A stretch of DNA of 53,405 nucleotides from Minisyncoccia bacterium (GTDB lineage: Bacteria > Patescibacteriota > Minisyncoccia > Phycocordibacterales > Zambryskibacteraceae), in the NCBI GenBank assembly GCA_049304335.1, contig JBAQOA010000014.1:1-53405 (forward strand). Direction: 5' to 3'. Below the pieces are notes generated by a model. The model worked only from the letters and a program-made list of their open reading frames with translations. It did not search any database and was not told where the DNA came from. Position numbers and translations under genes: made by a program. Shown one piece after another: positions 47 through 44,827 of this stretch. Every line of letters starts with the position of its first letter. Within the stretch, counting starts at the first letter, position 1.

Positions 47-739
47 TTAATTCGCTAACAGGGATTGTATTTGGATTTTTAGAGAAACGAGTGGTACGGC
101 TCCCTTTACTGGAATTTTTTGTCCATTTGGTCCAATTATTATTGAATAAGGTGTACCATCAGCTCCCGCAGCAACTCCATCTTGATAGTCTGATTCAACC
201 TTTGCTGCAGTTTTTCCACTAGTTAGACAAGTTGTGAATTCGGTTTTTGAAAGTCCGACACTTTGTGCAAGATCTGGAAGTATTGATGTATCAAGTGTGT
301 CATTAGAAGTGGCAATACTATAAAGTTTGTCAGTTAATCTCCAAAAAGCATCATTACCGCCAACCACTGAAGCGCACTCAAGTGCTTGTGCCTCGTATCT
401 TGCTCTGCTGTGCAAACTGTCTATAGGGAAGTGTCTGTACACCCAAGCGATTTTTCCATTGAAGGCTTTATCTGCCATTAGTGAAAGCATTGTTGTGTGA
501 AATATTTTGCAAAATGGACATTCAGGATCAGAGTATTCAATGACGATTACTTTTGCATCTCTGGGTCCGACAATGTGGTCGTCAGGTTGAAGTGTTTTTA
601 CTACTGCCTGTTTTTCTTGCACTTGTTCAGGAGCTTTTACGATATTTCCTTTTGTAGGAAGTTTTGATAAATAAACTCCGGCACCAATAAATATTCCTGC
701 AATTATAATTGAGCCCGCTAATACTAATGTGTTTTTCAT
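47..739 (-). CDS. membrane-anchored DsbA-like thiol:disulfide oxidoreductase
   Basis: Track ORF 47..784 trimmed to ATG 737-739 (MKNTLVLAGSIII.., a TM helix). Thioredoxin CxxC motif CPFC lies in SDPECPFCKIF. The first 15 track codons are read-through of the repeat element. Confidence 0.8.
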   Translation of the reverse strand: MKNTLVLAGSIIIAGIFIGAGVYLSKLPTKGNIVKAPEQVQEKQAVVKTLQPDDHIVGPRDAKVIVIEYSDPECPFCKIFHTTMLSLMADKAFNGKIAWVYRHFPIDSLHSRARYEAQALECASVVGGNDAFWRLTDKLYSIATSNDTLDTSILPDLAQSVGLSKTEFTTCLTSGKTAAKVESDYQDGVAAGADGTPYSIIIGPNGQKIPVKGAVPLVSLKIQIQSLLAN

Positions 740-874
740 CCTGATAGTGAAAAATGGCATTGCTCTATTCGAGCAGATTGCCAAGATTAATTATTATTTT
801 TAATAACCTTCGACTTCCCATTTTATTTAATTCTCACGCAGTTGCTCGATGCCATTTTCTACTACGGGATTCAT
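740..874 (-). repeat. copy A of a ~130-nt hairpin-ended element abutting a start codon (ATGAA...ATGAA)
   Basis: The reverse complement reads ATGAATCCCGTAGTAGAAAATGGCATCGAGCAAC..GTCGAA..GCTCGAATAGAGCAATGCCATTTTTCACTATCAGG and then runs into ATG 739-737. The ends are near-identical to the copies at 16756 and 44248. Confidence 0.85.
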
Positions 875-881
875 GTAGCGG

Positions 882-890
882 ATTATAACA
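882..890 (-). promoter_or_regulatory. extended -10 box TGTTATAAT, 7 nt upstream of the left ATG of repeat copy A
   Basis: The reverse complement of attataaca is TGTTATAAT. The -10/N6-8/start geometry matches many other genes in the window. Confidence 0.55.
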
Positions 891-898
891 AAAAAGAG

Positions 899-926
899 AG
901 CGCGCCGACTAATCAGTCGGCGCGCT
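899..926 (-). terminator. GC-rich hairpin terminator
   Basis: AGCGCGCCGACT aatc AGTCGGCGCGCT forms a 12-bp perfect stem. On the minus strand it is followed by CTCTCTTTTTT. Confidence 0.7.
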
Positions 927-1134
927 GCTGCTTTTACTCACCTTATTGCCATGAAGCGTGGAGGCTCAAGGGAGCTCCACAAGACTTGGGTGAGACCACC
1001 CAAGATGGCATAGAAGGTGATGAGTAGGATGACAAGTGAAGCTCTCACAGCATGCTGTTTGATGCTCAGACTGCCCCCTTTTGTTCGTCTTTGGCAATAA
1101 TAACATGTCGTTTATTTCTTGCTATATGTGCAAA

Positions 1135-1710
1135 TTACCAAGGCATTGCGTGGGTTAATTTTGCCTCCACCATATCCTCCCACTCAGAAACATCCAAATT
1201 AAGTTGATAGGTGCTTGATCCATCTGGTATCAAAACTTTTTTATTTTCTTTCATATAGTTATACAAATCGCGAGTGATTGAGACGTCTTTCAAACAGTAT
1301 TCAACAATTTTATCTATCTCGCCGTTTTTCCACCAAGTTATAGCATCTAATCCGTGACCGCCTTTTGATACTCCCAATGTGGCAGAAGCTACATCTTGTA
1401 ATTTAATGCGCCTACCCAGAGTCTTTTGAATAGTTTTCATTAAATCAATCGATTTAATTTTTGTTAAATCTCCCGGATAGTATTTGTTTAATAGGGGAAT
1501 GTCGAAGTGGTCAGAGTTATAACCAATTAGTGAGTCAGCATTTTCAATATATGGCCATAAATCTTTCAACTCATGCTCTTGAAAAGATTTTAAAGTATTT
1601 GTCGCAAAGTCGTATATTCCAACAATGGATATATCTAATTTGGCAGGATCATTTTCTCCAACATCAAAAAAAGTATTTTTTGTTTCTATGTCAAAAACTA
1701 GAGGTGCCAT
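1135..1710 (-). CDS. DEDD-type 3'-5' exonuclease (RNase H-like fold)
   Basis: Motifs FDIET (Exo I), YNSDHFD (Exo II) and YCLKDV (Exo III). A TGCTATAAT -10 box (1727-1719) ends 8 nt upstream of the ATG. Confidence 0.65.
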   Translation of the reverse strand: MAPLVFDIETKNTFFDVGENDPAKLDISIVGIYDFATNTLKSFQEHELKDLWPYIENADSLIGYNSDHFDIPLLNKYYPGDLTKIKSIDLMKTIQKTLGRRIKLQDVASATLGVSKGGHGLDAITWWKNGEIDKIVEYCLKDVSITRDLYNYMKENKKVLIPDGSSTYQLNLDVSEWEDMVEAKLTHAMPW

Positions 1711-11714: not shown

Positions 11715-12740
11715 GTGTCCAAGCAAATGTCATTTTTTACTAAGAAAATAGGTATAGATTTGGGCACAACGAGCGTCCTTGTTTATGTTCCAGGAAAGGG
11801 CGTTATTTTAAATGAGCCGTCAGTTGTTGCTGTGTCCGAAGAAGACAGAAAAATTTTAGCGATAGGGGTGGAGGCCAAAAAAATGATTGGCAAGACTCCA
11901 GAAAATATTATTGCTTATCGTCCCATGAAGGATGGTGTGATTGCTGATTACAAAGTAACAGAGGCAATGCTTAGATATTTTATAGGCAAAGCTCTTGGCA
12001 GATTTTCATTTATAAAACCAGATGTATTAATTTCAGTGCCTGCAGGTGTTACATCAACTGAGCGCCGTGCGGTTATCGAGGCTGCACTAAAAGCCGGAGC
12101 TAAAAATGCCTACGTTGTGAAAGAGCCAGTGTTGGCAGCAATTGGGGCAGGTATTCCGATTCAAGAGCCATCAGGCCAAATGATTGTTGATATTGGTGGT
12201 GGCACGACAGATGTGGCAGTAATTTCATTAGGTGGAATTGTGGCTTCAACGTCAGTTAAATGTGCTGGAAATAAAATTGATGTGGCAATTACTGACTATA
12301 TGAAGAAGACCTATAACTTGGCAATCGGAGACCATACTGCAGAGATTATAAAAATTGATGTTGGTTCCGCGGTCCCACTTGAGGAAGAATTAAAGATGAC
12401 GGTAAAGGGCAGAGATTATGTTTCTGGACTTCCTCGTTCTGTAGAAATAAAAACAAACGAAATTGTAAAAGCTATTTCAAAGGAATTACGCGATATGGTG
12501 AAAGCAATGAAAGATGTACTACAAGACACTCCGCCTGAACTCGCATCAGATATTATTGATAAAGGTATTGTAATGACTGGGGGTACAAGTCAGCTTAGGT
12601 ATTTACCCGAATTGGTTTTCCGTAGAACAGGTGTAAAAGCCGTGCTCGCAAAGGATGCCTTGTTTTGCGTAGTGAAGGGCACAGGAATTGCACTAGAGCA
12701 TTTGGATGCGTATAAGAAAGTAGCCATTTCCAAGAGGTAG
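11715..12740 (+). CDS. mreB: MreB/actin-like protein, stand-alone paralog
   Basis: IGIDLGTTSVLVYV, VISVPAGVTSTERRAV and DIGGGTTDVAVISLGG. The start is GTG 11715 or ATG 11727. Confidence 0.8.
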   Translation: MSKQMSFFTKKIGIDLGTTSVLVYVPGKGVILNEPSVVAVSEEDRKILAIGVEAKKMIGKTPENIIAYRPMKDGVIADYKVTEAMLRYFIGKALGRFSFIKPDVLISVPAGVTSTERRAVIEAALKAGAKNAYVVKEPVLAAIGAGIPIQEPSGQMIVDIGGGTTDVAVISLGGIVASTSVKCAGNKIDVAITDYMKKTYNLAIGDHTAEIIKIDVGSAVPLEEELKMTVKGRDYVSGLPRSVEIKTNEIVKAISKELRDMVKAMKDVLQDTPPELASDIIDKGIVMTGGTSQLRYLPELVFRRTGVKAVLAKDALFCVVKGTGIALEHLDAYKKVAISKR

Positions 12741-33061: not shown

Positions 33062-35785
33062 ATGGAAATAGTTCCGGGACAAGAAGGGATGCCAACTCCA
33101 AACGAGGAATTAACATATCTTCACGAGCAATTAAATCAAATAAAAAGAGATACTCCCCATGAAAATGAGGAGGGCATTTCAAAAAATATAATAAAAAATT
33201 ATGCTGCCTCGACTCCAAAAGAATTATTTGGTGCGCGGCACAACATAGATGAGACAGTGATTGCTGGCATTGCGCTGAAGTTAAAACCAGAGACGCACGA
33301 TGACAGAATGGAAGAGCTTTATAGAATTATTGAAAGTAAAGGCGTTTATTCGGCTTTGAAAATTGTTGAGAAGGTCAATGAACCACATTTAGAAGATGAT
33401 TTTCACAGATTTGTTTCCGAGCTCATTCGTGAAGGGCACGGTGTAAGGGGATTGAAAGAAAAGACGGATCTAGGACAGTCAGTTAGAAGGACTTTGTTTC
33501 AAATTGAAATTCCTAAAATAATTGCCGAGCAACACGGAGGAACAAAAGATTTATTTCAAAAAATGGAGGGCGTTTACACGGCCCTTCAAGGGGATGCAAA
33601 GGACAGAGAAACAGTAGTTTTAGAAATTGCTAACTCATCTGGCAATGAAGAGCTTGTATTTTATGCTGCAGTGCCAATTGCATGGGCAAATCGTTTTGAA
33701 AATTTGGTAAAGACGGCATACCCAGAGGCAAAGATTACAGAAGCACTAAATGACTTCAACATTTTCACCCCAAAAAGTTCGGTTTCAATTTCAACTGCAG
33801 AGTTAAGCCAATCAAGCGCACTGCCCATACAAACATATAGCGCTATCGAACACGACCCGATGAACTTGATACTTGGTTCATTTGGCAAATTAAGTAAAGA
33901 AAATGAGGGTGCGCTAGTACAAATAATCTATGGCGCAAATTCAGAATATTTTGCAAAGGAAGTTTTAGACAAGAAAAATGCCATAGAAAAAGGTGAAAAC
34001 CCAAAGGAAGTATTAAAGGATAGGGGAGTTGCGGCAACTGTGTTTAAGACAATTTTTGAGGCATTTAAAAGTTCAAAAGCACCAAAGCCAGAAGATATTG
34101 CAAGAAAAGAGGCGCAAGCGGGCAGTAAGTTTGCAGTCATTATAGATAAGTTAAATAAAAAAATAGCTAGACCAATTCTTCCAGTATGGATAAGGGTTGT
34201 AGCATCTGCGGGTAATGCCGGTAGAGCAGAAACTATTCGTGCCGACATTGAATCCACCTTCAAACAATTTTCAGAGCCACAAGGAAACAGTTTTGTATTT
34301 AAAAAAGTAAAATTACACGATTACAAAAGAGCAGTTAGGGCTATTTCTTTTCGACTTTCGTCATTTGGCACACCAATTTATTTGAATACAGAAGAATTGG
34401 CCACTATTTTTCATTTTGAATCGTCAAAACTTACAAGTTCTGGCTCATTAAAAATCGCAAAAAGCGTTTCAAGAAATGCCCCTGTTGATTTGCCCCAGAC
34501 AGGAATTCTCTTGGGCGTAAACGGAGAGGGTTCTCAACAAAGGAGTGTTTATTTAAGTGACGAAGATAGGTTGAGACATTTATATGTCATAGGACAAACA
34601 GGTACAGGTAAATCTACACTTTTAAAAAACATTGTTATTCAGGATATAGAAAAAGGGTACGGTGTTTGTTTTATGGATCCGCACGGCTCTGACATTGAAG
34701 AAATTTTATCTAGAATACCTGCTGATAGGCAAAAGGACGTCATTTATTTTGATCCAGCAAATCTAGACAGGCCAATGGCTTTAAATATGCTCGAGTACGA
34801 TGAAGCTTTTCCAGAGCAGAAAACATTTGTTGTCAACGAGCTTTTTGCGATTTTCCAAAAACTATATGGTGCTGTCCCTGAATCAATGGGTCCAATGTTC
34901 GAACAATATTTTAGAAATGCAACTCTACTTACGATAGAGGATCCCGAATCTGGCTCTACACTTCTTCATGTGGCCCGTGTTCTCTCCGATAGAGCATATA
35001 GAGAATTAAAGTTGTCGAAGTGTAAAAACCCAGTTGTTGTTTCTTTCTGGCAAAACATTGCGTCAAAAGCTGGTGGAGATGCGAGCTTGGCAAATATCGT
35101 ACCTTACATAACATCAAAGTTTGACGTTTTCCTTGCAAACGATTATATGCGCCCAATCATTGCTCAAGAAAAATCGTCCTTGAGGTTTAGAGAAATTTTG
35201 GATAACAAATCAATCCTTTTAGTAAATCTTTCGAAGGGGAGGCTGGGCGAAATCAACAGCAATCTTCTCGGTTTAATTATTGTTGGAAAAATTTTAATGG
35301 CCGCATTTTCTAGAGTAAATATCTCAGACAGCGAAAGGACAATGTTTAACTTGGTCATTGATGAATTCCAGAATGTTACAACGGACTCTATAGCAACTAT
35401 CTTTTCAGAAGCACGAAAGTACAAGCTGTCACTGACGGTTGCCCACCAATACATAGCTCAGTTATCAGAAAATATAAGCAAAGCAGTTTTTGGAAACGTA
35501 GGAACTCTGGCCACATTCAGAGTCGGTAGTGATGATGCGGAATATTTGGAAAAGCAATTTACTCCAGCATTTACAAAAACGGATTTGTCTAACTTGCCAA
35601 ATGGAGTTGCTGCTTTGAAACTTTTGGCCAACGGTAAACCACTTGATGCTTTCGATATAAAAACCTATGGATTTGAAAGAGGCACAGCCGATACGGACAA
35701 ACTCAAAAATGATTCAAGTGAGCGGTACGGCAGAAACAAAGAAGAGGTTGAAAAAATAATTAACGAGTCATTTTCAAACTTATAA
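33062..35785 (+). CDS. large soluble P-loop ATPase of the HerA/FtsK/VirD4-TraD superfamily with a ~480-aa N-terminal region of unknown function
   Basis: Walker A GQTGTGKST, FMDPHG, Walker B LVIDEFQN and VAHQYIAQL..GNVGTLATFRVG. No TM helix seen. Confidence 0.7.
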   Translation: MEIVPGQEGMPTPNEELTYLHEQLNQIKRDTPHENEEGISKNIIKNYAASTPKELFGARHNIDETVIAGIALKLKPETHDDRMEELYRIIESKGVYSALKIVEKVNEPHLEDDFHRFVSELIREGHGVRGLKEKTDLGQSVRRTLFQIEIPKIIAEQHGGTKDLFQKMEGVYTALQGDAKDRETVVLEIANSSGNEELVFYAAVPIAWANRFENLVKTAYPEAKITEALNDFNIFTPKSSVSISTAELSQSSALPIQTYSAIEHDPMNLILGSFGKLSKENEGALVQIIYGANSEYFAKEVLDKKNAIEKGENPKEVLKDRGVAATVFKTIFEAFKSSKAPKPEDIARKEAQAGSKFAVIIDKLNKKIARPILPVWIRVVASAGNAGRAETIRADIESTFKQFSEPQGNSFVFKKVKLHDYKRAVRAISFRLSSFGTPIYLNTEELATIFHFESSKLTSSGSLKIAKSVSRNAPVDLPQTGILLGVNGEGSQQRSVYLSDEDRLRHLYVIGQTGTGKSTLLKNIVIQDIEKGYGVCFMDPHGSDIEEILSRIPADRQKDVIYFDPANLDRPMALNMLEYDEAFPEQKTFVVNELFAIFQKLYGAVPESMGPMFEQYFRNATLLTIEDPESGSTLLHVARVLSDRAYRELKLSKCKNPVVVSFWQNIASKAGGDASLANIVPYITSKFDVFLANDYMRPIIAQEKSSLRFREILDNKSILLVNLSKGRLGEINSNLLGLIIVGKILMAAFSRVNISDSERTMFNLVIDEFQNVTTDSIATIFSEARKYKLSLTVAHQYIAQLSENISKAVFGNVGTLATFRVGSDDAEYLEKQFTPAFTKTDLSNLPNGVAALKLLANGKPLDAFDIKTYGFERGTADTDKLKNDSSERYGRNKEEVEKIINESFSNL

Positions 35786-36145: not shown

Positions 36146-36598
36146 CTAAAACAAAGACTCTACGATTGTCTTTACAACAGTGCTATCAGCATTGCCATTT
36201 AGCTCTTTTATGACCGCTCCCATAAGTTGTCCAGATTTAGCTTTATCAGTAATACCTAGTTCAGTTTTTTTAGCCTCAGCAACTTTCTTGATTTCTTCGG
36301 CTGATGCTTGAGCGGGGAGATAAGAAGAGATAATCTCTAATTCTTTTTTTTCCACATCTGCTAAATCCGCTCTGCCTCCTTTAGTGAATTGCTCTATTGA
36401 ATCTTTTCTTTGATTTGCTAAACGTTTCAATACAGTGAGAGCAATCTCATCGAGCACTGCTTCATTTGGTTTTTTTCCCTTAGCGACTAACTCATTAGTA
36501 AATCCGGCAATAAGACCACGCAATGTGAGTGTTTTTACAGAATCCTTTGCTTTCATGGCTTCCATTAGTTGGCCTTTTATTGTTTCCTCGATAGACAT
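36146..36598 (-). CDS. GatB/YqeY-domain protein
   Basis: 150 aa. LMEAMKAKDSVKTLTLRGLIA..YLP..S..EI pattern of the YqeY family. Confidence 0.75.
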   Translation of the reverse strand: MSIEETIKGQLMEAMKAKDSVKTLTLRGLIAGFTNELVAKGKKPNEAVLDEIALTVLKRLANQRKDSIEQFTKGGRADLADVEKKELEIISSYLPAQASAEEIKKVAEAKKTELGITDKAKSGQLMGAVIKELNGNADSTVVKTIVESLF

Positions 36599-44247: not shown

Positions 44248-44383
44248 ATGAAATCCCGTAGTAGAAAATGGCATTCGAGCAACTATGAGATAATAAAACA
44301 AATGATCGGTCGAAAGTTTAGAAATAATATAAGCATGTCTCGGAAGTTTGCTCGAAAGAGCAATGCCATTTTTCACTAACCGG
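44248..44383 (+). repeat. copy C of the ~130-nt hairpin-ended element abutting a start codon
   Basis: ATGAAATCCCGTAGTAGAAAATGGCATTCGAGCAAC..GTCGAA..TTGCTCGAAAGAGCAATGCCATTTTTCACTAACCGG is directly followed by ATGAAAG (rplI start, 44384). The left ATG lies 5 nt after the ctpA stop. Confidence 0.85.
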
Positions 44384-44827
44384 ATGAAAGTTATCCTTCT
44401 AAAAGATGTACCGAAAGTCGGTAGAAAGTTTGAGGTAAAAGAAGTATCTGATGGATACGCTACAAATCTTTTGCTTCCAAGAGGCTTAGCAGAAAAAGCT
44501 ACACCGCAGGCACTTACTGAGCTAAAAAAACAAATTGATGAAAGTTCAGCTTCTGAAAAAATTCAGCAAGAACTTTTGCATAAAAATTTTGATTCATTAA
44601 AAAAGGCTGAAATAAAAATACAAAAACCCGCAAACGAAGAAGGACACTTATTCGCGGGAGTGAAAGCCGATGAACTTAAAAACGCTATTGAAGCTCAACT
44701 CGGCATAGTTTTGCCTAAAAATTTTATTGAATTAGAACATCCACTAAAAACAACTGGAGAGCATTTGGTTAAAATTCAATCAGGAGAGCAAAATGCTAGT
44801 ATAAAAATAATTATTGATGCTAATTAA
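44384..44827 (+). CDS. rplI: 50S ribosomal protein L9
   Basis: MKVILLKDVPKVGRKFEVKEVSDGYATNLLLPRGLA. Track ORF trimmed by 12 codons that belong to the repeat. Confidence 0.9.
   Translation: MKVILLKDVPKVGRKFEVKEVSDGYATNLLLPRGLAEKATPQALTELKKQIDESSASEKIQQELLHKNFDSLKKAEIKIQKPANEEGHLFAGVKADELKNAIEAQLGIVLPKNFIELEHPLKTTGEHLVKIQSGEQNASIKIIIDAN

Follow-up and report, generated by a model that had tools for sequence, protein, structure and literature searches.

A non-autonomous transposable element (a MITE) of ~130 nt has integrated into the ATGAA of a leaderless dsbA-like gene and duplicated it, leaving the old promoter and the old ATG on one side of the element and a regenerated ATGAA with the intact open reading frame (ORF) on the other. 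This insertion, copy A, is one of three copies found by covariance-model search (97 to 111 bits, E-values of 1e-22 to 1e-26) in the window, the whole 53,405-nt stretch of contig JBAQOA010000014.1 that was analysed. The copies belong to a large family in the Paceibacteria/Patescibacteria that is previously undescribed in the literature searched. Insertion of a MITE, with targeting and with continued function of the gene behind it, is the best overall explanation of the data, and we regard it as likely (probability of roughly 0.8).

Copy A interrupts the start of a dsbA-like gene

Four syntenic, orthologous dsbA loci without the element were identified, with protein identities of 63 to 76% (L114, 76%; L115/L116, 69%; L117, 65%; L118/L119, 63%); synteny was defined by an RNase_H_2-like exonuclease gene followed by an optional small ORF and then dsbA. 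The closest of these orthologues are 228 to 232 aa long and share the N-terminus MKNTLVLAGS. Their empty-site junctions read, in order, ...TTTGTTATAATCTAGCTCT/ATGAAAAACACA, GGTATAATCAATTCCT/ATGAAAAATACA, GGTATAATCAGAACCT/ATGAAAAATACA and GATATAATCACGGG/ATGAAAAACACA, and the junction expected for an empty copy A site would be GTTATAATCCGCTACATGAAAAACAC. All four loci carry TATAAT-N6/7-ATGAAAAA, the leaderless allele that an earlier note, made from the sequence alone, had predicted for a locus with positions 740 to 874 deleted. That note had inferred an insertion and proposed a comparison with related genomes; the element-free orthologues bear out the inference, and every position that it gave for the copy A locus was confirmed.

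The pre-insertion allele, TGTTATAAT-N7-ATG, meets the criteria for a leaderless architecture (a -10 box 6 to 8 nt before the ATG and no Shine-Dalgarno (SD) sequence), although the transcription start site (TSS) is unmapped. The claim of the same note that many genes in the window use this geometry also held, with a -10 box 5 to 9 nt before the ATG in ~26 of the 71 long ORFs, compared with 12.8% of random ATGs in related loci. An intrinsic terminator ends the upstream transcription unit right before the -10 box, and the dsbA promoter is therefore self-contained; the same arrangement of terminator and promoter is found at the element-free orthologous loci L114, L115 and L118.

Table 1. Coordinates of copy A and its surroundings at the dsbA locus, and of the two other copies in the window (TSD, target-site duplication; MFE, minimum free energy).
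Feature	Position	Strand	Remarks
Intrinsic terminator hairpin	899..926	-	12 bp, 9 G-C; followed by T-run 898-891; directly upstream of the -10 box
Native dsbA promoter, extended -10 box TGTTATAAT	882..890	-	Leaderless type; same box at N6-7 from the ATG in empty-site orthologues
Spacer between -10 box and first ATG	881-875	-	7 nt, CCGCTAC
Left TSD copy ATGAA	870..874	-	Original start codon; expected transcription start (TSS unmapped)
Decoy ORF MNPVVENGIEQLREN	874-827	-	15 codons from the first ATG; stop at 829-827
MITE copy A body	740..869	-	130 nt; covariance model 108.5 bits, E 3e-25
M1, inner part of 5' arm (GAAAATGGCAT)	849..859	-	Pairs with M3
M2-like motif (ATCTTGGC)	780..787	-	Degenerate direct copy of M1, 19 nt before M3; marks the gene-proximal side
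Small internal hairpin GCTCGAATAGAGC	762..774	-	Adjoins the 3' arm; MFE structure
M3, inner part of 3' arm (ATGCCATTTTTC)	749..760	-	Contains an ATG (760-758) in frame with dsbA
Right TSD copy ATGAA	735..739	-	Working start codon of the DsbA-like ORF
DsbA-family thiol:disulfide oxidoreductase ORF	47..739	-	Intact; 230 aa plus stop (47-49)
Copy B	16756..16898	+	TSD ATGAA/ATGAA; 111.4 bits
Copy C	44248..44388	+	Repeat ATGAAA/ATGAAA; 97.3 bits

The body of copy A consists of TCCCGTAGTA, M1, a variable region, an A/T-rich region, the M2-like motif, the small hairpin, M3 and ACTATCAGG. If the duplication is taken as 4 bp (TGAA), the body extends to position 739 and provides the A of the second ATG. 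The pairs formed by M1 are invariant across 80 aligned copies, with the caveat that the family was ascertained with the M1 motif. The 5' half of the small hairpin has an alternative pairing with CGAGC beside M1, and other subfamilies carry equivalent small hairpins of different sequence. M1 could also compete with M2 for pairing with M3, for which there are no functional data.

The first and second ATGs are 135 nt apart, and the RNA between them folds as a long hairpin of -36.8 kcal/mol (z = -3.6), a value matched by none of 200 shuffled sequences. No GGAGG-type SD sequence precedes the second ATG, and the sole resemblance is an AGGA 1 nt upstream. The codon following the first ATG, in the decoy ORF, is AAT. 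The ORF behind the second ATG has 722 homologues at E≤1e-20 and contains Pfam DSBA/Thioredoxin_4 domains (PF01323, PF13462); the NCBI annotation starts DsbA at the M3 ATG inside the element, giving a 237-aa product (MPFFTIR+MKNT...).

The other two copies in the window also sit at start codons. Copy B lies at the start of a 101-aa ORF (16894-17199) that was originally 2 nt past the stop codon (16751-16753) of an RseP-like M50 protease gene, a context that we infer from sequence alone to be operon-internal and not leaderless. Copy C lies at the start of rplI (ribosomal protein L9, 44384-44827), 5 nt past the stop codon of an S41 (CtpA-like) protease gene; the ORF from its first ATG spans the whole element and stops at a TAA 4 nt before the rplI ATG.

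A family of MITEs with 4-5 bp target duplications

A pattern scan recovered more than 113 copies; they are spread over at least 52 species-level MAGs of Patescibacteria, four of which have at least 5 to 6 copies each. This phylum-wide family, its seat on start codons and its fixed polarity had escaped the earlier note. The element termini are TCCCGTAGTAG...CTAnCGGG(A), bounded by a target duplication of 4-5 bp. The terminal inverted repeats (TIRs) take the form TCCCGTAGTAGAAAATGGCAT...ATGCCATTTTTCACTAnCGGG(A), where TCCCGTAGTAGAAAATGGCAT pairs with ATGCCATTTTTCACTAnCGGGA, and contain 18 consensus pairs over 80 copies. The tips of the family can also be written CCCGTAGTAG...CTACTACGGG; sister families keep the tips CCCGTAGTAG/CTACGGG and have different inner arms.

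A perfect 5-nt flanking repeat is present in 99 of the 112 copies, in 27 different sequences. This repeat varies with the target and yet matches on both sides, and is therefore a genuine target-site duplication (TSD), whose real length of 4-5 bp is set by the assignment of the terminal T...A. ATGAA (37 copies) and ATGGA (20 copies) are joined by ATGTA, ATGCA and ATGAG, and non-ATG repeats occur in a sister subfamily. Tandem arrays of the element exist, and share the repeat. With a body of 130 to 150 nt, no conserved reading frame and stop codons in most copies, the family meets the size and no-transposase criterion for a MITE; the criteria of TIRs, a site-dependent TSD, empty orthologous sites and multiple dispersed copies are also met. 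In most copies M2 lies 9 to 26 nt before M3.

Searches for a wider structural or mobile context were negative within their scope. Only the outer stem could be aligned across subfamilies, so that no consensus structure was obtained for the interior, and the invariance of the stem is uninformative because the search pattern fixed those bases. When Rfam 15 covariance models were run over the window, two tRNAs alone reached the gathering score; at permissive thresholds, nothing in positions 600 to 1100 came within 30 bits of the gathering score, and the best E-value was 0.22. No autonomous parent was recognised, in the form of unpaired or long-spaced TIRs or of long TIR-bounded segments, in 0.9 Mb of loci (whole genomes were not scanned). 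The 20 largest ORFs of the window contain no transposase domain, and no copies of the element were found in viral contigs. In the literature searched, neither MITEs of Patescibacteria nor MITEs on start codons are described.

Insertions occupy start codons in a single polarity

Of 112 usable copies, 92 lie exactly on the start codon of a gene, and these 92 share, without exception, one internal polarity with respect to the gene. In 80 copies the right-hand ATG opens an ORF of 60 aa or more. Twelve copies that were first classed as reversed proved to have a swapped bulge and an interior in the same orientation as the rest. The polarity is also evident in the position of M2, which is gene-proximal in 66/84 copies and in the mirror arrangement in 8/84, in the excess of A over T in the element interior (76/84 copies) and in the covariance-model scores (97-111 bits forward versus 45-53 bits in reverse). 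A proposal that the polarity arises from a terminator forming in the reverse orientation only was rejected, as terminator-likeness is equal both ways.

The genes with the element at their start include rplB, rplI, topA, murG, smc, scpA, greA, proS, typA and an ftsA-like gene. As a separate observation, the same gene has been struck in different lineages in the case of dsbA (twice), scpA and rplI.

ATGAA and ATGGA dominate as targets, though they start just 21% and 5% of window genes, and ATGGC is never a target, though it starts 16% of them. Of the ATGRA sites in the window, 264 lie inside ORFs, 29 at intergenic positions that are not starts and 16 at start codons; from these counts, sequence alone predicts fewer than 40% of tolerated insertions at start codons. 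A sequence preference on its own cannot explain the start-codon bias. In the route that we propose, a DDE-type transposase acting in trans would make a staggered cut of 4-5 bp with a preference for ATG[A/G]A, and orientation may be fixed by the asymmetric ends (M1 versus M2 plus M3), by selection or by both. This route is inferred, and in the absence of any identified transposase we favour it by only a narrow margin.

Insertions shared between diverged species

Several insertions are common to diverged species, with the native -10 box kept upstream, and some members of the family have stayed in place at one gene while species diverged. In the shared insertions L040/L076 and L054/L091, positions 4-5 of the TSD have decayed. 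Between members of orthologous pairs, identity is 0.88-1.0 in the arms and 0.77-0.95 in the 3' interior, compared with 0.5-0.66 at synonymous third positions and ~0.45 in the upstream flanks. The -10 box is found at unchanged spacing from the first ATG in L016/L032, L063/L078 and L034/L049/L053, and in L040/L076 GCCTATAAT is kept while the DNA further upstream is unalignable. More widely, TAnnnT lies 4-10 nt before the first ATG in 51/84 copies. The first ATG itself is kept in 84/92 copies and three of the remaining eight read GTG, while the shared rplB insertion L086 has lost it. Repeated re-insertion or gene conversion remains a possible alternative reason for the high conservation of the element in these pairs.

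Expression of the gene behind the element

The expression of DsbA from this arrangement can only be inferred. The native promoter would still drive transcription, which would begin at the first ATG and read through the element. The first AUG would keep its native initiation context, as a 5'-terminal AUG in copy A and through stop-codon-proximal reinitiation in copies B and C, and ribosomes would load there and translate the short decoy ORF across the 5' arm. This translation would keep the 3' arm unpaired and expose the second AUG in a U-rich, SD-less context, where internal initiation would then yield DsbA; a context of this type is used by operon-internal genes in the same genome. Endonucleolytic processing of the long stem, for instance by RNase III, could add to or replace the unmasking. 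The earlier note proposed an mRNA with a hairpin leader of 135 nt that lacks an SD sequence, which is plausible and in keeping with the native promoters kept at old insertions, but has not been demonstrated. For the exact chain of read-through, decoy translation and unmasking, our confidence is clearly below even odds, in the absence of transcript or ribosome data from these uncultivated organisms.

The accessibility to be gained by masking the 5' arm is predicted by the folding model to be modest. The predicted mean unpaired probability at the second AUG is 0.38 in the full leader, 0.52 with the first 36 nt masked and 0.68 without the element. The distance from ATG to ATG falls into the three classes modulo 3 in 29, 29 and 26 copies, leaving the decoy ORF without a conserved frame or length, and in most cases 80-99 nt separate its stop from the second ATG, a long distance for reinitiation. 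A hairpin of M2 with M3 followed by U5 (dG ≤ -8) is present in 52/84 copies and in 55/84 reversed sequences; it looks like a weak terminator just before the gene and, if it acts as one, would oppose simple read-through.

Three other routes to expression were considered and rejected. A conserved small peptide or in-frame coding insertion is not supported, as the frame is not conserved and the stop positions vary. A general relay of termination and reinitiation would apply to few members, since the decoy ORF ends within 12 nt of the gene ATG in only 8/84 copies, copy C included. The M3 ATG cannot serve as a universal start: it is in frame and open in 38/84 copies (all three window copies among them), forms an AUGA overlap in 20 and is out of frame in 24.

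Across the copies, neither a promoter within the element nor an SD sequence, a reading frame or a sense-strand wobble signature was found to be conserved. The outer-stem mismatches comprise 41 C.A and 21 U.G, and so show no sense-strand wobble bias, with the reservation that these counts are not phylogenetically independent. Given this lack of G.U bias, the hairpin may be conserved as DNA only, as transposase sites.

Alternative explanations

The rival that survives best, and that remains possible, is an outward promoter inside the element. The dsbA mRNA would then start within the element, without the 5' arm or the long hairpin, and the old promoter would be redundant; the candidates are an A-rich hexamer ending in T just before the GG in M2, or TGCCATTTT in the 3' arm. 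Functional promoters have precedents among MITEs, in Correia elements and REP2 cassettes (PMC3184786), and the A/T-rich interior holds many TAnnnT hexamers. M1 and M2 (AAAATGGC) resemble the native window promoter TGCTAAAATGGCCCT-ATG that precedes the ORF ending at 36146, and copy B has TTTACA-16-AATATT ending at M2, which is borderline in a simple scan. In orthologous pairs, conservation of the interior is higher in its gene-proximal half, and a fixed polarity is the expected outcome of selection on a one-way promoter. Against this reading, the 84 copies show no forward-specific, position-specific peak of -10-like sequence, both strands being equally rich, and neither copy A nor copy C yielded a promoter in the simple scan. 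Native -10 boxes are kept in diverged orthologous insertions, which is unexpected if they are redundant. A start at M2 would still leave an SD-less leader of 40-55 nt, so the translation problem would persist.

It is unlikely that a full-length transcript is instead cut in the stem by RNase III or another endonuclease, to give a product with a short or nearly absent U-rich leader. The stem, with ~22 nearly continuous pairs and -37 to -39 kcal/mol, falls in the class of RNase III substrates, and such processing would unmask the second AUG without a conserved ORF, which matches the absent frame conservation. The hairpins of Correia elements are reported to be processed by RNase III. However, there are no processing data, the stem lacks a G.U signature and a cut inside it gives no 5'-terminal AUG. 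The polarity is also left unexplained, as a reversed element forms the same outer stem.

A bolder reading, which we also consider unlikely, is that the element is more than a parasite that its hosts tolerate and serves as a mobile 5'-leader cassette, homing to sites of translation initiation and acting through the duplicated AUG. Ribosomes loaded on the first AUG would hop or shunt over the hairpin to the second, or would switch the pairing between M1:M3 and M2:M3 and thereby set read-through and translation. If this were true, dozens of housekeeping genes of the CPR would be under one transposon-delivered control, and a transposase would recognise start codons in an oriented way.

Bypass or shunting at the stage of initiation is very unlikely on its own terms. 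Here a 70S ribosome on the 5'-terminal AUG, blocked by the hairpin, would have its initiator tRNA re-pair with the second AUG and leave the element undecoded. The take-off and landing codons do flank the hairpin, with ATGAA...ATGAA at the base of the stem; the first ATG is kept in 84/92 copies with GTG in three more, and its native initiation context is conserved. The model also suits leaderless and operon-internal contexts alike and needs no conserved decoy ORF. However, no bypass at initiation has a precedent, and both the stop after take-off and the nascent-peptide signal of T4 gene 60 are absent, with no peptide yet made at initiation. Target duplication produces matching codons by itself, L086 has no first ATG and the polarity is again unexplained.

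We consider it similarly improbable that the insertion silences or cripples dsbA and the other genes, as a parasitic disruption caught before gene decay. In its favour, folding predicts that the element lowers the accessibility of the second AUG (0.38, versus 0.68 without it), and the element supplies no SD sequence or promoter. Against this, the dsbA ORF is intact and full length, the family sits on rplB, topA, murG, proS, smc and others that are essential in studied bacteria, and, among species that share insertions, the ORFs have stayed open although synonymous divergence between them is close to saturation.

The reading of the ~135 nt as an old cis-regulatory leader passed down vertically (a riboswitch, attenuator or thermosensor) with ATGAA as part of its motif, for which the position 5' of genes, the conservation in orthologous pairs and the alternative pairings (M1:M3 versus M2:M3 plus U5, and X:X' versus the small hairpin) could be cited, is all but excluded by the four closer dsbA orthologues that lack the element at precise empty sites, by a flanking repeat that covaries with the second codon of each target gene, by the functionally unrelated genes downstream, by the tandem arrays and by the absence of an Rfam match.

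Comparison with known elements and initiation systems

Correia elements (CREE) are ~100-155 bp long, with long TIRs that form a hairpin, a TSD and many copies near genes, where they are co-transcribed and can alter expression (PMC3184786). The present element resembles these and other bacterial MITEs in its small size, TIR hairpin, TSD, multiple copies and position adjacent to genes. It differs from CREE, which duplicate TA, in its 4-5 bp duplication, usually (A)TGAA or (A)TGGA, and no promoter can be demonstrated in it. Membership of the CREE was rejected, as neither the TA duplication nor the Neisseria-type 26-bp TIR is present and the host phylum is Patescibacteria. To our knowledge, no MITE is known to sit precisely on start codons, in one polarity and at dozens of housekeeping genes, and none was found in the literature searched.

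The REP2 repeats of Neisseria and IR-A/IR-B of Borrelia are repeated cassettes of ~150 bp that lie 5' of unrelated genes, contain internal stem-loops and meet the ORF at an ATG (PMC3184786). The present element is likewise directly 5' of many unrelated genes with an ATG at the junction. Whereas REP2 has no TIR or TSD and supplies a promoter, a ribosome-binding site and the ATG, the present element possesses a TSD as well as TIRs, gives the gene back its own ATG through target duplication and offers no ribosome-binding site or conserved promoter. Rickettsia palindromic elements (RPE) are mobile palindromes tolerated within essential genes of a reduced genome; their insertions keep the reading frame and end up in the translated protein. 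Most copies of the present element, unlike RPE, have stops in every frame, and their frame is not conserved. The nearest approach to RPE behaviour is a sister C-family in pilin genes (L079).

Among insertion sequences, families with 4-5 bp duplications and ends beginning CC, such as IS1380, offer a tentative parallel to the present TSD length and to the present termini, which read (T/C)CCCG inwards. No full-length element, transposase gene or match to the TIRs was found for such a family, and IS1380-type families are not known to insert in an oriented manner into an asymmetric target. PATE derived from IS200/IS605 insert 3' of a fixed tetra- or pentanucleotide without duplication and have separate subterminal hairpins. 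The ends of the present element are instead inverted repeats of each other, and an origin as PATE was rejected, as the matched repeat differs between near-identical copies of one genome (ATGGA in L023/L033, ATGAA in L036).

With respect to translation, 70S ribosomes bind to a 5'-terminal upstream AUG (uAUG) on leadered mRNAs of E. coli, and its translation can affect how the gene further downstream is expressed (Beck, Fleming & Janssen, 2016; PMC4965119). The dsbA transcript would be similar, with an AUG expected at the mRNA start and the real cistron further downstream; in E. coli, however, the downstream gene has an SD sequence, while the dsbA-like gene has none and is separated from the first AUG by a mobile hairpin. 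Bypassing in T4 gene 60 and shunting on CaMV 35S RNA act during elongation or scanning (40S). In the former, as here, identical codons flank a stable hairpin, and in shunting a short ORF precedes the structure. The stop after take-off, the nascent-peptide signal and 40S scanning of those systems are all absent, and in the present element the codons that flank the hairpin are identical because of the target duplication.

Implications

Gene callers misplace starts at loci that carry the element, as illustrated by the NCBI annotation of DsbA. Insertions that are shared between species, together with those that recur, provide markers for CPR phylogeny and for the activity of the element. The location of rplB, topA and murG behind an SD-less hairpin that follows a duplicated AUG makes them natural test cases for how leaderless and SD-less initiation contend with structure. 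The landing of a MITE on start codons with single-nucleotide precision and in one polarity, in at least 50 species, points either to a mode of target selection undescribed for DDE elements or to an unusually sharp filter by selection, as when an insertion survives only if its imprecise deletion would destroy an essential gene.

An insertion at the start codon of the dsbA-like gene

The 135 nt separating the two ATGs of the dsbA-like locus form a long hairpin (-36.8 kcal/mol, z = -3.6), and the 230-codon ORF that follows encodes a DsbA-family protein (722 homologues at E<=1e-20; Pfam DSBA/Thioredoxin_4 domains). A TAnnnT-N5-9-ATG geometry is found at ~26 of the window's 71 long ORFs; clear Shine-Dalgarno (SD) sequences are seldom seen, and the starts of operon-internal genes lie mostly 2-5 nt past the preceding stop. 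The coordinates, ORFs, hairpin and geometry of this locus had been described in an earlier note made from sequence alone, and all of these statements held on re-reading.

Features of the dsbA-like locus, element copies in the window, and sister-family copies in loci (L-numbers) fetched from related genomes
Feature	Position	Strand	Basis or remark
Intrinsic terminator	926-899 + T-run, directly 5' of -10 box	minus	sequence
-10 box TGTTATAAT	890-882	minus	sequence
Spacer CCGCTAC	881-875	minus	sequence
First ATGAA	874-870	minus	opens 15-codon ORF
15-codon ORF MNPVVENGIEQLREN	from 874, stop 829-827	minus	sequence
Second ATGAA	739-735	minus	opens 230-codon ORF ending at 47
Copy A	735-874	minus	covariance-model match
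Copy B	16756-16898	plus	covariance-model match
Copy C	44248-44388	plus	covariance-model match
Sister-family copy	L084:692-813
Sister-family copy	L012:993-1131
Sister-family copy	L036:2447-2525
Sister-family copy	L033:1659-1733
Sister-family copy	L043:924-989

The earlier note had also read copy A as an insertion between a leaderless promoter and the dsbA-like ORF, to be checked against related genomes for an element-free allele. For this check, DsbA protein homologues were searched and DNA around the closest ones was fetched: L114 (76% identity), L115/L116 (69%), L117 (65%) and L118/L119 (63%). These loci are syntenic with the window: as at window 1135-1710, a gene for a 191-aa RNase_H_2-like exonuclease precedes dsbA. 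The element is absent from all of them. Their upstream/start sequences (TTTGTTATAATCTAGCTCT/ATGAAAAACACA, GGTATAATCAATTCCT/ATGAAAAATACA, GGTATAATCAGAACCT/ATGAAAAATACA and GATATAATCACGGG/ATGAAAAACACA) match the allele given by removing 740-874 from the window; the predicted allele was thus found in L114-L119, and the insertion interpretation was right. Since the closest syntenic loci lack the element, the insertion is derived in the window's lineage.

The empty-site DsbA orthologues are 225-232 aa long, and all five with the start region read begin MKNTLV. In three related genomes an ORF of 134-149 aa separates the exonuclease gene from dsbA (L114:2017-2454, L117:2042-2491 and L118:2044-2448); it is absent from L115 and from window 890-1134 (~245 nt, short ORF fragments left), apparently through lineage-specific gene loss beside the insertion site. 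Elsewhere in the window, a textbook TGTTATAAT-N7-ATG leaderless start precedes the gene for a 907-aa protein (33062-35785, plus) that weakly matches coupling proteins of the VirD4/TraG type and HerA-like ATPase domains (T4SS-DNA_transf, TraG-D_C, DUF87), and two full-length MreB paralogues lie 6 kb apart (11727-12740 and 18586-19662, plus) in a region that also has two PBP transpeptidases, MraW and a Mur ligase.

A family with a constant architecture and a variable target-site duplication

A scan with the two-arm pattern GAAAATGGCAT-N75-105-ATGCCATTTTTC, one genome per species, returned at least 113 stretches, all in Patescibacteria MAGs except one chance match. The MAGs are labelled Paceibacterota, Nomura-, Zambryskii- and Wolfebacteria, Parcubacteria, or generically 'Saccharibacteria'; at least 52 assemblies carry the element, with up to 6 copies each. 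A covariance model found no copies in the window beyond A, B and C, no copy was found in the viral contigs searched, and the literature searched held no description of such an element.

In gene orientation the order is constant in every copy: the repeat (ATGNN), TCCCGTAGTA, the inner 5' arm M1 (GAAAATGGCAT), a variable segment richer in G+C in which a small hairpin is common, a stretch rich in A/T that often includes GTCGA, M2 (an A-rich, AAAATGGC-like degenerate direct copy of M1, 9-26 nt upstream of M3), either a short hairpin or sequence complementary to what follows M1, the inner 3' arm M3 (ATGCCATTTTTC), ACTA(N)CNGG, and the repeat (ATGNN) that opens the gene. Interiors differ greatly among subfamilies, with the overall hairpin kept. 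Sister families match the main family only over the terminal ~10 nt (CCCGTAGTAG / CCCGTTAGAA ... CTACGGG); their inner arms are others, such as GATTTTGGCAT/ATGCCAAAATC. This pair replaces GAAAATGGCAT/ATGCCATTTTC, a two-sided change, in one short family of 75-79 nt, whose repeats include GTCAA and TATGG; the L084 and L012 sister types also occupy ATGAA start codons.

The flanking repeat varies among copies, and its left and right occurrences agree in 99 of 112 (ATGAA in 37, ATGGA in 20, ATGTA in 4, ATGCA in 3 and ATGAG in 3). Repeats of the CCCCG-end subfamily include TCAAG, TTTAC and TATAA. A fixed terminal motif in place of a duplication is ruled out, as near-identical copies in a single genome carry different repeats. 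The repeats of L029 (TATG) and copy C (ATGAAA) indicate a true duplication of 4-5 bp, with element ends T-CCCG...CGGG-A; the empty site is identical under either reading. Tandem arrays at L012 (993-1263), L025, L072 (6761-7030), L092 and L103 have one repeat common to neighbours; these and the array at L055 run head to tail with one shared ATGAA, each insertion regenerating two target copies.

Start-codon placement, polarity and target preference

The right-hand ATG opens an ORF of >=60 codons in 80 of 112 usable copies. Twelve more seemed reversed under the asymmetric pattern; in gene orientation their interior is arranged as in the others, the only difference being a one-base bulge moved to the other arm. 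The other 20 are tandem members, truncated loci, CCCCG-subfamily copies or the chance match. Polarity was checked independently of the covariance model in 84 copies: M2 lies <=34 nt from the gene-proximal arm in 66 (mirror arrangement, 8), A exceeds T in the interior of 76, and no clearly reversed copy was seen. A TAnnnT hexamer stands 4-10 nt 5' of the first ATG in 51/84 copies, as against 12.8% of random ATGs; copies without it are operon-internal, like copies B and C.

Target preference extends beyond the ATG, position 5 being nearly always A and position 4 mostly a purine. Only 21% of window gene starts are ATGAA and 5% ATGGA; ATGGC and ATGTC, common among these starts, are never targeted. 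The pentamer preference is insufficient to explain placement, because the window has 264 ATGRA sites inside ORFs and 29 at intergenic non-start positions, against 16 at start codons. We infer that either something beyond the pentamer guides target choice, or selection together with retention works far more strictly than mere avoidance of ORFs. Two copies lie in ATAAA, off the start codon (L042, L098). The start-codon rule is broken most clearly by L042:2614-2752, a main-family copy 9 nt 5' of the rplV start and directly after the rpsS stop, and by L112, a sister-family copy (repeat TATAA) within a -10 box, where the duplication restores TATAAT-N7-ATG beside the gene.

All three window copies have an in-frame ATG within M3, and gene starts at element loci are probably mis-called systematically. 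NCBI's annotation (protein P0001) places the DsbA start at the ATG within the 3' arm (M3, window 749-760, minus), giving 237 aa (MPFFTIR+MKNT...). Two sister-subfamily copies (L079:5112-5257 and L079:6586-6731; ends CCCAG/CCCCG...CGGGG, repeat TTTAC) lie within two genes for type IV pilin-like proteins, each inserted precisely at the prepilin cleavage motif (...KILGG/FTLVELMV and ...GERG/FTLVEALIA). There the 3'-arm ATG is in frame and would yield a new 7-residue leader, MPFFSAG, before FTLVE...; the element may thus provide substitutes for the start codon and the leader peptide.

Age and constraint

Fourteen orthologous gene groups carry insertions in at least two species, among them rplI, rplB, topA, murG, an ftsA-like gene, smc, scpA, greA, proS, typA, an ftsW-like gene, a site-2 protease gene and dsbA. 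The L044 DsbA homologue (42% identity, E 1e-65) has an ATGGA repeat and a different subfamily, while the window gene's nearer relatives lack an insertion; this is an independent hit. The scpA insertions are likewise independent, the L034 subfamily differing from that of L049/L053. Shared and old insertions are those of L040/L076 and L054/L091, where positions 4-5 of one repeat copy have diverged, and those of L016/L032, L043/L090 and L063/L078, which, like L040/L076, have homologous interiors. Identity in shared pairs is 0.88-1.0 in the arms and 0.77-0.95 in the gene-proximal interior half, compared with 0.5-0.66 at synonymous third positions and ~0.45, the random level, in far-upstream DNA; these values may be too high if re-insertion or gene conversion has occurred, and A/T-rich sequence aligns easily. 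In shared insertions the native -10 box keeps its spacing from the first ATG, which is retained in 84 of 92 copies (GTG in three more). Essential genes tolerate the element over long periods, and native promoters are kept.

Expression of the gene behind the element

The most economical model is that transcription would read through the element from the retained promoter, with translation beginning internally at the second AUG; ribosomes still loading at the first AUG would open the 5' arm and aid the second, and stem cleavage could add to initiation there. It rests on the tolerance of the element by essential genes and the keeping of native promoters and the first ATG, and we hold it only tentatively (probability ~0.35). 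Predicted accessibility of the second AUG is 0.38 in the full leader and 0.52 when a ribosome occupies its first 36 nt; for the element-free mRNA it is 0.68. There is experimental precedent in E. coli, where 5'-terminal uAUGs are bound by 70S ribosomes and affect cistrons further downstream (PMC4965119).

No SD precedes the second ATG, and an RNA-level wobble signature and terminator asymmetry are both absent. No frame is conserved as in a coding or relay ORF; the first ORF typically stops 80-99 nt short of the gene and comes within 12 nt of it in only 8/84 copies, including copy C, where a stop-start relay is plausible. The M3 ATG is usable as a start in 58/84 copies and is not universal.

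Among the alternatives, an element-borne promoter driving the gene remains possible, but the element has no strand- or position-specific -10 signal. Processing of the stem as the main expression route is unlikely, and bypass or shunting to the second AUG very unlikely. None of these, nor the read-through chain, explains the polarity, which may provisionally be ascribed to the asymmetric ends (M1 versus M2+M3) during transposition.

Relation to known elements

The element meets each testable MITE criterion, the exception being an autonomous partner, which is unidentified. It differs from the Correia element in both duplication and host; an IS200/IS605 derivative is excluded because the duplication is variable, and a REP2-type cassette because there are terminal inverted repeats and a target-site duplication. 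No Rfam family matches it. Its distinctive behaviour lies in single-nucleotide start-codon placement, ATG regeneration, one polarity and occupancy of essential genes. The phenomenon extends beyond the dsbA locus, and both the expression mechanism and the transposase are experimentally tractable.
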